The position numbers were made by a program, and so were the translations under genes. Positions 14,046 to 53,395 of a DNA stretch of 64,000 nt are shown in pieces. Numbering within the stretch: position 1 is the first letter of the stretch; every line of letters begins with the position of its first letter. The DNA comes from Octopus sinensis (lineage: Eukaryota). Where the stretch lies: the NCBI RefSeq assembly GCF_006345805.1, contig NC_043014.1, positions 41,850,001 through 41,914,000 of the forward strand. Direction: 5' to 3'. Below the pieces are notes generated by a model. It was not told where the DNA came from. It ran no database searches and saw nothing but the letters and a program-made list of their open reading frames with translations.

Positions 14046-15330
14046 AAGGTGACGAACTGGCACGATCGTTAAGGGTGTCAGACAAATTGCTTGGTGTTAT
14101 TTCTTCCGGTCCGGCGTTCTGGTTTCAAATACTATCGAGGTCGAATTTGCATTTTATCCTTTCCGGGTCGATGAAATAAGTACCAGTCGAGGAATGTGGG
14201 GTCGATGTAATCGACTAGACCCTTCCCGCCAGATTTCAAGCCTTGTGTCCTATTGTGTAAAGGATTGTTACGATAGATACAAAAGTGGCGAGCTGGCAGA
14301 ATCGTTAACACGCCAGGCGAAATGCTTTGCGGTATTCCGTCTGCCGCTACGTTCTGAGTTCAAATTCCGCCGAGGTCAACTTTGCCTTTCATCCTTTCGG
14401 GGTCGATTAAATAAGTACCAGTTACACACTGGGGTCGATATAATTGACTTAATCCGTTTGTCTGTCCTTGTTTGTCCCCTCTGTATTTAGCCCCTTGTGG
14501 GTAGTAAAGAAATAGGTAATTATTCCGGCATTATGTTCAGAGTTCAACTTCCAGCAACGCTAACTTTGACTTTAGTCCCCTCAGGGTCGAGCACTGAGGT
14601 CAGTGTAATCGACTAGACCCCTCTCCCAAAATTTCCGGCCTTGCACCTAAAGAACAAAGGATCATTACGATAGATATAAAATTGGTGAGCTGGCACAATC
14701 GTTGGCAGGATTTCTTCCGAAACTTTACATCCTGAGTTCAAATTCTGCTACGGCCAAATTGGCCTTGTATCCCCTCGGAGTCAATAAAATAAGTATCAGT
14801 CGATCACTGGAGGTTGAAGTAAACCACTAGACCCACACCCACGGAATTTTAGGCCTTGTGCCTATAACAGAAAGGATTATTATAATAGATACAGAAGTGG
14901 TGAGCTGGTACAATCGTTAGCAGCATTTCTTCTGAAACTTTACGTCTTGAGTTCAAATTCTGCCGAGTCCAAATTTGCCTTCCATCCCCACAGGGTCGGC
15001 AAAATGGTATTCGTCGACCACTGGAGGTTGAAGCAAAAAGAAAAAAAACCCAAAAAACAACTAGATTCCACTCCCGGATATTTCGGGCCTTTTGCCTATA
15101 GGGCAAAGGATTATTACGAGAGATACAAAAGTAGCGAGCTAGTACAGTCGTTTAACGGTATTTTTTCCGAAATTCTACGTCCTGAGTTCAAATTCTGCCG
15201 AGGTCAAATTTGTCTTTCATCCTTTCAGAGTCGTTGACATAAAATAAGTACCTGTCAAGCATTGGGAGCCAATATAATCGACTAGAGCCCTCATTCCAAA
15301 TTCAGACCTTGTACCTATAGTAGAAAGAAT
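14046..15330 (+). mobile_element. Head-to-tail cluster of about 6 family B-related SINE units
   Basis: Recurrent GAGCTGGCA...GAGTTCAAATTC...ATAAAATAAGTACC...GACTAGACCC...GGATTATTACGATAGATA units; one young copy at 14286-14517. Confidence 0.8.
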
Positions 15331-15855
15331 TGCAATTACGATAAATACCAAGGTCAACGAGCCGATAAAATTATTAGTTACCACTCTCAGCTTCAAACAT
15401 TTTGGGTATTTTGTGCACGACATATCTAATTGAAAAACAAAAAGAAAAAGAAACAGATCATACAATGAGAGCTAGCAAGAGGAATTTTATAAAAAATGGA
15501 GGCTCTACCATGAGTCTGTAAACGCGTGGTGGTTCTCTAGAGTTACTTCATGTAGAACTGCATTAAGTTCTTATGAGTGATTGACGAGTGAATGTGTAGT
15601 AGAGTGTAGTCTATTTTATTTTACTCTATTTTATTCTTCTTTTCTCTCTGCTCTTTCTTTGTTTTTGATTTATTCATTTTATTATTATTATTATTATTTT
15701 TATTATTTTCTTTTGCTTTCTCTTTCTTTTCAGAATAAAAGGTCCTGTTCTGAAGTTGTTTTATACAAAACTTCACGGTTCCTTGGCCGTGTTGCCTTAA
15801 ATTATAACAGTGAAAACTGGAAATTAAAAAAGAAACCACTACGCCATATGCTCAC

Positions 15856-16109
15856 GGGCATATGGCGTAGTGGTTAAGAGCGCGGACAACTAACACCAAG
15901 ATTCCGAGTTCGATTCCAGACAGTGACTTGAATATAATAATAATAACAATAACAACATCAGAAAATACCTTAAGAATGAGAACCCACGTTCCAAATTTCC
16001 CCAAGACACCTGATGAAGGCTGCAGGGTATATCAGCCGAAACGTTGTGTTAACAGCAAACAAGATGAAGACAAATATCCGTCAAATGTAAATAATGTAAA
16101 AAAAAAAAA
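15856..16109 (+). mobile_element. tRNA-headed SINE-like element carrying a hammerhead ribozyme
   Basis: A box TGGCGTAGTGG (15863-15873), B box GTTCGATTCC (15908-15917), no acceptor stem, hammerhead at 16005-16050, A-tail, no internal T4. Confidence 0.8.
16005..16050 (+). ncRNA. Minimal type I hammerhead ribozyme (canonical core)
   Basis: GACAC CTGATGA A GGCTG-cagggtatat-CAGCC GAA ACGT T GTGTT: 5-bp stem I, 5-bp stem II, palindromic loopless stem III, GUU cleavage site. Confidence 0.82.
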
Positions 16110-16600
16110 GTTAATTAAAAAAAAATGTTGGTTCGTCAGACAAAATGTTCAGAGGGTTTTCTTCCGAGTATTTACGTTATGAGTTCGAGTTCCAGGCGGC
16201 GCTAACTTTTTCTTTTACGTTTTGAATTTGAATCCTGTTAGAGTCGAATTTACCATTCTTTCGTTTTGTTCATCGCCCTAACCATTTCACCAATATACCA
16301 CCCTACAGTGTCACATTACCTTCTGAAAAATAGCAGCCAAATTCCCCTCAAATACAATCTACATACAGCGTTAATTTTCGAGGTATACTAATTAGTGCTT
16401 GAGGATGTTGCGCAGGCCGCAAAAAAAAAAAAAAAAATAGATGAATAAATAAATAAACAAAAGCATGAATAGGAAAAAATCAAGTTCAATTTTTATTCGT
16501 CTTAGAATTTTGACAGAGACGCAACCAATTAAAGTGAACGGATTAAATTAACTGATACTTATTTAATCGACCTCGGGAGGATGAGATGCGAAGCTGGTCG

Positions 16601-16792: not shown

Positions 16793-17104
16793 GTGTGTGT
16801 GTGTAAGAAATCGAAAACAAAACAATAAATTGGACAATTATAAATTCAATTCAATTTCAATATTTTATACAAACATATGACACATCTCATAAATAACCTC
16901 TTTATCTCATAAGCACCTAGAAACTTCGGGAGATGTGAAACAATTCGTTTTTAATGATAGAACTCAAAGTAGATAAAGTTATATATATATAAAATATCAG
17001 ATATTTTTTAATATATTATTTTTAAAAACCTCCCCTCATAATTTATAAATTTTCCAACGAACTAAACCACCAAAAATGTGTACCTTATTCTATTTTAAAA
17101 AACG

Positions 17105-28085: not shown

Positions 28086-28503
28086 CTCTTTACTCTTTTA
28101 CTCTTTTACTTGTTTCAGTCATTTGACTGCGGCCATGCTGGAGCACCGCCTTTAGTCGAGCAAATCGACCCCGGGACTTATTCTTTGTAAGCCCAGTACT
28201 TATTTTATCGGTCTCTTTTGCCGGAACCGCTAAGTGACGGGGACGTAAACACACCAGCATCGGTTGTCAAGCAATGCTAGGGGGACAAACACAGACACAC
28301 AAACATATACACACACACTTATATATATATACATATATACGACAGGCTTCTTTCAGTTTCCGTCTACCAAATCCACCCACAAGGCATTGGTCGGCCCGGG
28401 GCTATAGCAGAAGACACTTGCCCAAGATGCCACGCAGTGGGACTGAACCCGGAACCATGTGGTTGGTTAGCAAGCTACTTACCATACAGCCACTCCCGCG
28501 CCT
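28086..28503 (-). mobile_element. SINE family A, young full-length copy
   Basis: Near-identical to the copies at 56127 and 63374; (GTAAAAGA)n tail. Confidence 0.93.
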
Positions 28504-28967
28504 ATGTATAATTACATGCATATATCTGAACTTCAAAAAATCTATAGTGTTTACACACATATACAGAAACACACTCACACAAACACATTATAGACACATA
28601 CACACACTTACATATGTATATATATATATTCACACACATATAATTGTATAATATTTCAGCTACATCTCTGTGTTAGAGGTGTGTGTGTGTTTGTGAGTGT
28701 GCACACGTATGTGGTACATATGAATGCATGTATGCCTATTTGTGTGTCTATTTTCATACATGAATCGTTTCACTTGCTGAGGTTTGAGAGTTTATTTCTT
28801 CCATATACTATGACAAGACAGTAAGATAAAAACGATATAAAAAAATACAGAATAATTCATCCTTGTTCTCTTTATCATAATTTATGCGTCGAACTTCTTT
28901 CACATTTTAAGATCTTACCCCATGTACAGCCATAGTTTCATTTAGGCAGGTTGATTGATAAATTTCT

Positions 28968-43329: not shown

Positions 43330-44022
43330 ATTTTAGCATAAGGCGTGCAATTTCGGGGGATGAATTAAATCGATTACATCGACCCAATGCTTAACTGTTA
43401 CTTATTTTATCGACCTCGAAAGGATGAAAGGCAAGGTCGACCTTAGTGGAATTGGAACTCAGACGAAATACCACAAGGAGCTAAACATAGAGGAGACAAA
43501 CAAGGACAGACAAACGGATCAAGTCGATTACATCGACCCCAATGCGCAACTGGTACTTAATTTATCGACCTCGAAAGGATGAAAGGCAAGGTCGACCTTG
43601 GTGGAATTGGAACTCAGACGAAATACCACAAGGAGCTAAACATAGAGGAGACAAACAAGGACAGACAAACGGATCAAGTCGATTACATCGACCCCAATGC
43701 GCAACTGGTACTTAATTTATCGACCCCGAAAGGATGAAAGGCAAAGTCTTGGCAAAATTTGAACTCAGGACGTAACCGCAGACGAAATACCTAATTCTGT
43801 ACTACCCACAATGGGCTAAACGCAGAAGGGACAAACAAGGACAGACAAACGGATTAAGTCGATTATATCAACCCCAGTGCGTAACTGGTACATATTTAAT
43901 CGACCCCGAAAGGATGAAAGGCAAAGTCGACCTCGGCAGAATTTGAACTCAGAACGTAACGGCATACGAAATACCGCTAAGCATTTCGCCCGGTTTGCTA
44001 ACGTTTCTGCCAGCTAGCCGCC
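43330..44022 (-). mobile_element. SINE family B tandem multimer (four units)
   Basis: Head at about 44020 followed by repeated bodies; two ~155-bp units are near-identical. Confidence 0.9.
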
Positions 44023-46007: not shown

Positions 46008-46420
46008 AGCGGCGAGCTGGCAGATACGTTAGCACTCCGGGCGAAATGCTTAGTGGTATTTCGTCTGTCGTACTGTTCTGAGTTCAAATTCCACCGAGCT
46101 CGACTTTGCTTTTCATCCTTTTGGGGTCGATTAAATAATTACCAGTTACGCACTGGAGTCGATGTGATCCACTTAATCTCTTTGTCTGTCTTTGTTTGTC
46201 CGCTCTGTGTTTAGCCCCTTGTGGGTAATAAAGAAATAGGTATTTCGTCTGCCGCTACGTTCTTAGTTCAAATTCCGCCGAGGTTGACTTTGCTTTTCAT
46301 CCTTTCGGGGTCGATTAAATAAGTACCAGTTACGCACTGGGGTCGATATAATCGACATAATTCCTTTGTCTGTCCTTGTTTGTCCCCTCTATTTAGCCTC
46401 CTGTGGGCAATAACGAAATG
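46008..46420 (+). mobile_element. SINE family B tandem dimer
   Basis: Junction aagaaataggtatttcgtctg. Confidence 0.92.
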
Positions 46421-50984: not shown

Positions 50985-51598
50985 GTGTCAAATTTTGGCA
51001 CCTGCCAGTAATATCGGATGGTGGGGGGGGGGCGGTAAGTCGATTACACCGTCTCCAGTGTTCAACTGGTACTTATTTAATCGACTCCGAAAGCATAAAT
51101 GGTAAAGTCATCCTGGACAGAATTTGAACTCAGAACGTAAAGACGGACGAAATGTTGCTAAGCATTTTACCCGGCGTGCTAACGTTTCTTATTTCTTTAC
51201 TACCCACAAGGGGCTATACACAGAGGGGACAAACAAGGACAGACAAAGGGATTAAGTTGATTATATCGACTCCAGTGCGTAACTGGTACTTACTTTATCG
51301 ACCCCGAAAGGATGAAAGGCAAAATCGACCTCGGAGGAATTTGAACTCAGAACATGAAGACAGATAAAATACCTATTTCTTTACTACCCACAAGGGGCTA
51401 AACACAGAGAGGACAGACAAGGACAGACAAAAGGATTAAGTCGATTATATCAACCCCAGTGCGTAACTGGTACATATTTAATCGACCTCGAAAGGATGAA
51501 AGACAAGGTCGACCTCGGCGTAATTTGAACTCAGAACGTAGCGGCAGACGAAATACGGCTACGCATTCGCCCGGCGTGCTAACGTTTCTGCTAGCTCA
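50985..51598 (-). mobile_element. SINE family B dimer adjoining an older unit
   Basis: Junction aaatacctatttctttactacccac at about 51367. Confidence 0.9.
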
Positions 51599-52925: not shown

Positions 52926-53174
52926 CTTTTATTCTTTTATTTGTTTCAGTCATTTGACTGCGGCTATGCTGGAGCACCGCCTTTAGTCGAACAAATCGAC
53001 CCCCAGGACTTATTCTTTGTAAACCTAGTACTTATTCTATCGGTTTCTTTTGCCGAAACGCTAATTTACGGGGATGTAAACGCACCAACATCGGTTATCA
53101 AGTGATGATGGGGTTACAAACGCAGACACACAAACACATACACATACATACATACATACATACACACACACACG

Positions 53175-53241
<67 letters not shown>

Positions 53242-53395
53242 GGCTTCGTTCAGTTTCCGTCTACCATATATACTCCCAAGGCTTTGGTCGGCCCGAAGCT
53301 ACAGTAGAAGACACTTGCCCAAGGTACCACGCAGTGTGACTGAACCCAGAACCATGTGGTTGGTAAGCAAGCTACCACACACTTACTCCTGCGCA
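52926..53395 (-). mobile_element. SINE family A
   Basis: Full head, body and tail. Confidence 0.9.

Follow-up and report, generated by a model that had tools for sequence, protein, structure and literature searches.

Is a short octopus repeat that joins a tRNA-like head to a hammerhead ribozyme a SINE in its own right, or is it one end of a larger mobile element? The question is raised by a single locus in a 64-kb stretch of the Octopus sinensis genome (NC_043014.1, positions 41,850,001–41,914,000; hereafter the window). The initial annotation of this stretch described the locus as a chimera of a tRNA promoter and a ribozyme, separate from Penelope-like elements (PLEs) and possibly moved by their machinery. 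We find that head, (AAT)n linker and hammerhead together are the pseudo-LTR (pLTR) of an autonomous PLE, which encodes a reverse transcriptase (RT) with a C-terminal GIY-YIG endonuclease, and not a separate SINE.

Organization of the window copy

Positions are those of the window, and signed offsets take as position 0 the G at 15856 with which the tRNA-like head begins. The copy lies on the plus strand. Its tRNA-derived head (15856–15928) is followed by an (AAT/AAC)n linker of variable length at 15931–15958, 5′ of the start codon; across copies the gap between head and ribozyme ranges from 15 to 142 nt. The first 41 codons of the PLE ORF (15976–16098) are open in the window and read through the ribozyme, which occupies 16005–16050. 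Upstream of the head, on the minus strand, a fold-back arm (15834–15853) repeats the head's initial 20 nt (15856–15875) in inverted orientation. The two are complementary at 19 of 20 positions, with one G-T pair, and are centred on the element's own hairpin (GCCC-ac-GGGC in the family). The first run of four T (T4) after the head is found at 16157–16160. Fold-back, A and B boxes, linker, hammerhead and first T4 all lie where the initial annotation had placed them. It also counted one copy in the window, in agreement with our BLAST search, which found no second copy and no ORF piece of the element in the 64 kb. A repeat search within the window was dominated by microsatellite matches.

The copy stops at the “short” 3′ end of the family (16090–16100). 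The 3′ ends of the family are bimodal, and the “long” end adds ∼30–35 nt of PLE tail that is absent from the window copy. The A-run at 16098–16109, first described as an A-tail, is present but private to this copy, as 8 or more A at the 3′ end were seen at only 1 of 95 sampled sites. A 12-nt sequence at 15822–15833 may be the left target-site duplication (TSD), matching 16113–16124 at 11 of 12 positions, 10 nt of it exactly. This assignment is uncertain, given an A-rich flank and a right copy displaced by ∼14 nt.

The ribozyme is a minimal hammerhead

The hammerhead is made up of a 5-bp stem I (16005–16009/16046–16050), the CUGAUGA core (16010–16016), an extra A before a 5-bp stem II (16018–16022/16033–16037), GAAA (16038–16041) and a loop-less stem III consisting of one A-U pair and a palindromic CG. 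All 11 core positions equal the family majority. Judged by sequence and predicted fold, this is a minimal, dimer-type type I hammerhead of the PLE kind, matching the minimal type described for metazoan PLEs in excerpts of PMC4209133, and not a canonical one as first thought; the loop-less stem III and the extra A mark the difference. Cleavage is predicted after 16045, and the ribozyme would cut only as a dimer or with the help of a protein. A 66-nt fold is no more stable than that of shuffled sequences (z = −0.09), and Rfam scans, by gathering threshold and by E-value, called neither the hammerhead nor the head. The core is intact in 80 of 136 arms, a sample partly selected on the ribozyme.

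The locus had also been thought to finish in a PLE-type ribozyme terminus. Copies of the family end ∼55 or ∼85 nt beyond the cut site, and the ribozyme defines neither of these ends.

Membership of an autonomous Penelope-like element

The complete unit is 2.7 kb long and consists of head, (AAT)n, start codon, hammerhead, tail, ORF (RT, then GIY-YIG) and a 33-nt spacer, after which the next head begins. Several samples lead to this order. Among the first 30 loci, five had common upstream sequence, which translates as GIY-YIG in four, one of them with RT beyond. When loci were instead selected by a distant RT query, all 30 belonged to this PLE family, and 23 of them run into a head ∼33 nt after the ORF stop. 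At the other end, the family 3′ tail runs on into the ORF body in a near-complete copy (L058), a tail-to-ORF junction with 384 candidates, and the frame that opens at 15976 crosses the ribozyme and enters the ORF body in four natural copies (L193, L197, L205 and L210). As the frame is continuous into the ORF and the head recurs downstream of the stop, we assign head, linker, ribozyme and tail to the pLTR of the 2.7-kb unit. The pLTR is formed by partial tandems, and the ORF start overlaps it. The initial annotation had suggested looking for an autonomous PLE that shares 15960–16100; L058 and the ORF-attached copies are such an element. The alternative raised there, that the tail might be an ordinary LINE 3′ UTR, does not hold, as the sequence 3′ of the linker is PLE coding sequence.

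A majority sequence built from 47 aligned pieces gives one open frame of 803 codons from tail to stop, with the motifs in order; depth is just 1–6 over its first 600 nt. It is a single ORF with a PLE RT plus a GIY-YIG domain at its C-terminus, with two Cys between GIY and YIG. The N-terminus, from the 41-codon part in the window onward, is 48% identical over 88 aa to the N-terminus of a relative (P0003; E = 8e-22), and the ribozyme-encoded N-terminus is retained in this 56%-identical relative. A natural frame of 551 aa matches 1665 proteins carrying RT and related families. Pfam gave a weak RVT_1 match to one piece, and the 551-aa frame had no match. By eye, the natural frames have no Cys-rich linker between RT and endonuclease, a trait of Penelope/Poseidon; the linker is present in Neptune/Nematis. 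We therefore place the element among the endonuclease-bearing (EN+) PLEs of Penelope/Poseidon type, an assignment made from these features. No intact young copy was found among the copies, which are ∼92% identical to the majority. The tail contains a 9-nt unit that occurs one to three times per copy, always keeping the frame, at the short RT start site (16084–16098).

Copy number and linkage of head and ribozyme

A 256-nt query returned 4413 candidates in the genome (G000), 40 of which were scored and match at 87–92% over nearly the full length. Exact matches to a 27-mer of the ribozyme number 4597 genome-wide, and those to a 31-mer of the head 3780; the controls, reversed in the case of the 27-mer, gave 0, and the counts lie far above chance. 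The exact 27-mer is carried by 18 of 87 arms that were sampled independently of it, from which we estimate ∼22,000 ribozyme-bearing arms (interval 15,000–36,000), the genomic count that had been missing.

Head and ribozyme, whose linkage had been questioned at the outset, stay joined. In 30 loci selected by the head, the whole ribozyme follows downstream in 26 and part of it in 2, while the remaining 2 end within the linker or shortly beyond it. Sequencing runs of three other organisms (A, C and E) also contained the fold-back point and the 3′ ends.

Ends, inverted arms and target-site duplications

To map the ends, exact ribozyme matches were taken in order along contig C1; 90 were fetched and 2 overlapping ones removed, leaving 88 loci. 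Inverted arms are present in 54 of the 88. The 3′ ends of 131 arms fall into two groups, 67 at +240 to +260 and 59 at +270 to +278, with none between and 5 shorter. Insertions with two arms are bounded by two 3′ ends, and in 33 of 36 such insertions one of these is long and the other short. A duplication of 10–13 nt, mostly 12 nt, lies near both borders in 20 of the 36, two of them in simple repeats. Among single-armed copies, whose 5′ borders are poorly placed in AAT runs, a TSD of 9 nt or more was seen in 3 of 33.

The PLE of Anolis carolinensis, PAc, has two internal RT start sites and cleaves both strands, according to the sections of PMC11167929 that deal with it. Pairs of long and short ends within a 10–13 nt duplication would follow if the two strands of a staggered cut each prime at their own RNA site. 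The one-sided tail of 30–40 nt seen here, together with inverted 5′ arms, is a PLE trait (for the tail, see the relevant part of PMC8557442). With inverted arms, long and short 3′ ends and 10–13 nt TSDs all present, the early suggestion that PLE machinery moves these copies is well borne out.

The 5′ ends cluster at the head. With symmetric fold-backs counted once, 40 of the 59 events that reach +8 stop within −8 to +8, a density of 5.3 ends per 100 nt compared with 0.87 just downstream and 0.13–0.34 upstream; 2–3 of the 40 (L145, L162 and L175) may hold short read-through. The head-selected set gives a similar picture, with 20 of 26 5′ ends at the head (6 of its 30 loci are also in the first set). 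Many 5′ ends at the head have no fold-back. An exact fold-back pattern gave 829 strand hits, most sites being counted twice, against 452 read-through copies. The hairpin of the head has 4–5 bp and a predicted stability of ∼−4.7 kcal/mol. Three upstream pLTRs, independent of one another, extend as far as the head; they begin at −8 (L204), −7 (L193) and −2 (L195). In L154, a tandem junction, the pLTR extends upstream to −182, and in L207 the end of the ORF is joined to the tail with the head skipped. These two loci indicate that longer RNAs or nested insertions also occur.

Short and ORF-attached copies share their variants

If the short copies formed a lineage of their own, it might be recognizable by diagnostic variants. 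We compared 81 short with 27 ORF-attached arms, leaving out 28 intermediate ones. Every variant at a frequency of 8% or more is common to both groups. Only two positions reach P ≈ 0.04; both lie in the hairpin, where fold-back predicts differences. Divergence outside CpG is 4.2% for the short and 3.8% for the ORF-attached arms. With no diagnostic variants and similar divergence, the simplest reading is one master type that gives both products, and it is likely that a single element yields full-length as well as SINE-like short copies. The first view of a chimera separate from PLEs is not supported by these results, as the head is part of the autonomous element in 23 of the 30 RT-selected copies.

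Compared with a typical SINE, the short form has the tRNA-derived head with A and B boxes. In this modest sample (81 against 27 arms) it is not a separate non-autonomous lineage, and in place of an A-rich or repeat tail from a LINE 3′ end it ends inside the PLE ORF. Nor does it form tandem arrays of hammerhead units, as retrozymes do: 88 sampled loci contained no head-to-tail arrays of the short unit.

The tRNA-derived head and the question of Pol III

Aligned without gaps, the head is identical to a genomic tRNA-Arg(ACG) gene at 45–47 of 73 positions (47 for the window copy). Its A box (15863–15873) matches that of the tRNA gene at 9 of 11 positions and its B box (15908–15917) at 9 of 10, so that the boxes differ at 1–2 positions. 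The cloverleaf has been lost: the four tRNA-like stems, all broken, pair at 2/7 (acceptor), 1/4, 3/5 and 3/5, and ARAGORN did not call the head as a tRNA. A gapped alignment to tRNA-Arg scores 45 against a shuffle maximum of 33, and tRNA-Asn also scores 45. With an alternative scoring, Arg reaches 68 and Asn 63 in the whole panel of 12 isotypes, and Asn ties at 47 identities. The best-scoring candidate source is tRNA-Arg(ACG), with tRNA-Asn tied on identity.

The pLTR has no T4 up to the tail. The sense strand of the majority ORF has none either, whereas 3.4 are expected from synonymous shuffles (P ≈ 0.01, for one lineage). Natural copies contain 0.31–0.35 T4 per kb, in keeping with the 0.41 simulated for the decay of a T4-free master. 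Runs of five A are also depleted in the majority ORF (7 vs. 12.9 expected, P = 0.011). For comparison we used 28 non-redundant related ORFs of more than 1 kb from 77 metagenome loci. In these, T4 is not depleted (171 vs. 148 expected), each of the 26 for which at least 2 are expected contains some, and A5 shows mild depletion (196 vs. 229). No pair of A and B boxes was found downstream of the 28 ORFs, of which just 5 reached a hammerhead-like motif. The same genome offered no head-less PLE family as a T4 control, as all 30 RT-selected loci belong to the present family.

In two raw RNA runs of organism A, which may not be the species of the window, the ∼6% covered of each had equal depth on both strands. 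These fragmented cDNA libraries gave no start or end, at the cut site or elsewhere, and their depth tracks the copy profile.

We lean slightly towards Pol III as the polymerase of the element. Since the 2.7-kb sense strand lacks T4, unlike the 26 related ORFs, Pol III may also transcribe the coding RNA. The fullest form of this idea, that the entire coding RNA of 2.7 kb or more is made by Pol III from a captured tRNA promoter, with the coding strand purged of T4 terminators and solo pLTRs as the main product, is tentative, and we consider it rather doubtful. An uncapped Pol III RNA would make a poor mRNA. If the coding RNA is nonetheless a Pol III product, its translation becomes a direct experimental question.

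Origin of the short copies

Our preferred explanation, to which we give a probability of about 0.68, is that the window copy is a solo pLTR of the autonomous Penelope/Poseidon-type PLE, and that the tRNA-derived head likely sets the 5′ end of the RNA as a Pol III-type internal promoter. We infer that the transcript would start ∼6–8 nt before the head. The PLE protein would make a staggered cut of ∼12 nt in AT-rich DNA and reverse transcription would begin within the RNA, from two positions ∼130 and 155 nt into the ORF, in the manner seen in vitro for PAc. Starting at the sites near the RNA 5′ end would give a cDNA of 250–285 nt that stops at the head, which is a SINE-like short copy, and starting at the downstream copy of the sites would give ORF-bearing copies. 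Once the cDNA reaches the end of the RNA, the 4–5 bp hairpin of the head could let it self-prime and produce the 20-nt fold-back.

Several observations speak against this explanation. The 5′ ends are spread over 17 nt, and many lie at 0 to +8, as a stall before the hairpin could give; 2–3 of the 40 events may hold short read-through; L154 and L207 point to longer RNAs or nested insertions; A5 is depleted along with T4; the RNA runs gave no direct sign of Pol III or of an RNA start; an uncapped Pol III RNA would serve poorly for translation; and no intact young copy was found. Ends at 0 to +8 fit the view that the head has no active role and is left over in the PLE 3′ UTR from an old SINE or tRNA pseudogene, carried in a longer Pol II tandem RNA, with the short copies produced by RT stalling or snap-back at the hairpin. 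It is also in line with this view that fold-back and read-through at the hairpin are about equally frequent, that the pLTR of L154 is accompanied by upstream ORF sequence, and that Penelope of D. virilis, in the account given in part of PMC2377424 the one PLE promoter studied in vivo, relies on an internal promoter like that of LINEs, together with a downstream promoter element (on pLTR promoters see also the corresponding passages of PMC6765202). We nevertheless find a passive head unlikely. The hairpin is weak, yet it is where about two thirds of the cDNAs stop; roughly half of the ends lie at −8 to −2, past the copied hairpin; both boxes have been kept while the stems decayed; and T4 is absent along the unit. 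The commonest single end, 6 of 30 in the head-selected set, is position 0, the +1 base of a tRNA. This could point to processing of a longer RNA, by RNase P-like cleavage at the tRNA-like head or by hammerhead cleavage and circularization as in retrozymes, and the many intact ribozyme cores would agree with the latter. Such processing is very improbable in view of an acceptor stem that pairs at only 2 of 7 positions, the many ends that retain the −8 to −2 leader, the lack of short-unit arrays in the sampled loci and the position of the copy ends away from the ribozyme cut.

The initial annotation favoured an independent, non-autonomous SINE lineage, born of a PLE end, that copies from short genomic masters with PLE protein. 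Short, head-started copies do exceed ORF-bearing ones, as an exact endonuclease pattern has 554 matches against the 3780 of the head, although the patterns are not strictly comparable. Some copies could be transcribed, having intact boxes and no T4, and long-tailed copies keep the short RT start site. Still, short and long arms are of equal age and no variant tells them apart, the length variants of the tail are the frame-keeping 9-nt repeats, and PAc needs RNA ∼55 nt downstream of the start site (PMC11167929, in the part on initiation), which is mostly absent in short copies. We judge a separate lineage to be improbable, and return to the solo pLTR with an active head as the preferred reading.

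Relation to known elements

Among the closest known systems are the PLEs of the Penelope/Poseidon clade, PAc in particular, as portrayed in the consulted sections of PMC11167929. PAc and the octopus element both have one ORF (∼845 aa in PAc) with RT and C-terminal GIY-YIG, an ORF start that overlaps the hammerhead, two 3′ ends 30–40 nt apart, inverted 5′-truncated arms and AT-rich targets. The octopus pLTR differs in that a tRNA-derived head carrying both promoter boxes comes first, and its start codon lies 34 nt 5′ of the ribozyme core, whereas that of PAc lies inside the core. The pairs of long and short ends in a 10–13 nt duplication make the octopus copies a genomic test of the internal-initiation model of PAc.

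Sm-alpha and Sj-alpha of Schistosoma, present in tens of thousands of copies, also have a Pol III promoter related to tRNA and, after it, a type I hammerhead. As far as the excerpts of PMC2770079 and PMC6765202 go, these are SINE-like repeats of tandem or satellite form whose ribozymes are canonical and for which no autonomous partner is named. In octopus this combination makes up the terminal repeat of a coding PLE; its ribozyme is minimal, and its copies are dispersed and inverted. If the whole unit is indeed transcribed by Pol III, it would be a living intermediate showing how elements of the Sm-alpha type can arise from a PLE. Non-LTR retrozymes are likewise short, non-coding-looking relatives of PLE pLTRs with type I hammerheads and dispersed monomers; they form tandem arrays cut from ribozyme to ribozyme (PMC7229834; bioRxiv 10.64898/2026.07.22.740005, both in part), whereas the octopus ends are RT start sites and the head. 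The 2026 preprint (bioRxiv 10.64898/2026.07.22.740005) argues for a PLE origin of retrozymes and, in its available portion, does not mention tRNA, Pol III or promoters. Cephalopod repeat papers list PLEs and SINEs separately (relevant sections of PMC13282606 and PMC8967140), and the portion of the SINEBase paper available (PMC3531059) does not mention Penelope.

The octopus element joins PLE pseudo-LTRs with the tRNA-headed, hammerhead-bearing SINE-like repeats from which they have been treated as separate. Ohshima and Okada reportedly described the octopus retroposons OK, OR1 and OR2 in 1994, OR1 and OR2 being related to tRNA-Arg. Such tRNA-derived SINEs are said to resemble the short form in their tRNA-like head with A and B boxes, their length of 250–290 nt and their high copy number, and to differ in being non-autonomous with a borrowed LINE 3′ end; the octopus head also occurs in an autonomous element, and its “tail” is the 5′ coding end of a PLE. 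The element thereby shows how a family resembling SINEs can arise with no LINE tail, and ∼20,000 copies that annotation would likely label as SINEs are PLE ends. Its parts are known, from Penelope/Poseidon PLEs and from the pairing of Pol III promoter and hammerhead in Sm-alpha and Sj-alpha. In the literature, which our search covered as opposed to the repeat databases Repbase, Dfam and SINEBase, no PLE with a tRNA head turned up. A SINE name may already exist for the short form, and the repeat libraries of PMC13282606 and PMC8557442 may already hold the family.

Additional observations

Four loci (L183–L186; G000:C8464:5691, C9459:38223, C9724:23138 and C1:206748919) carry one and the same near-full-length insertion in an identical flank, three of them on small contigs and the fourth on a chromosome; they represent assembly duplicates or a segmental duplication. 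A second repeat of ∼630–840 nt lies in or beside the (AAT)n linker in several copies (L049, L046, L050 and L061), which suggests that the linker is a target for another element. Elsewhere in the genome, ∼90 units matching tRNA-Arg(ACG) form a tandem array with a period of ∼206 nt (G000:C2:3121900–3157900; L214–L224).

Within the window, two tRNA genes, Asn(GTT) at 8953–9028 and Met(CAT) at 9333–9404, lie 300 nt apart on the minus strand. A long T-rich tract ending in TTTCAG (15630–15733), 100 nt upstream of the insertion, resembles a 3′ splice site. Other dispersed repeats of 200–350 nt and 80–94% identity are found from 17100 onward and at ∼8500–8910, 28285–28511 and 53154–53374, and a second dispersed family of the same length and identity range near 10620–10970, 14280–14590, 43750–44020, 46010–46395 and 51220–51570. 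The repeat at 17100 has a tRNA-like head of its own, unlike that of the PLE copy.
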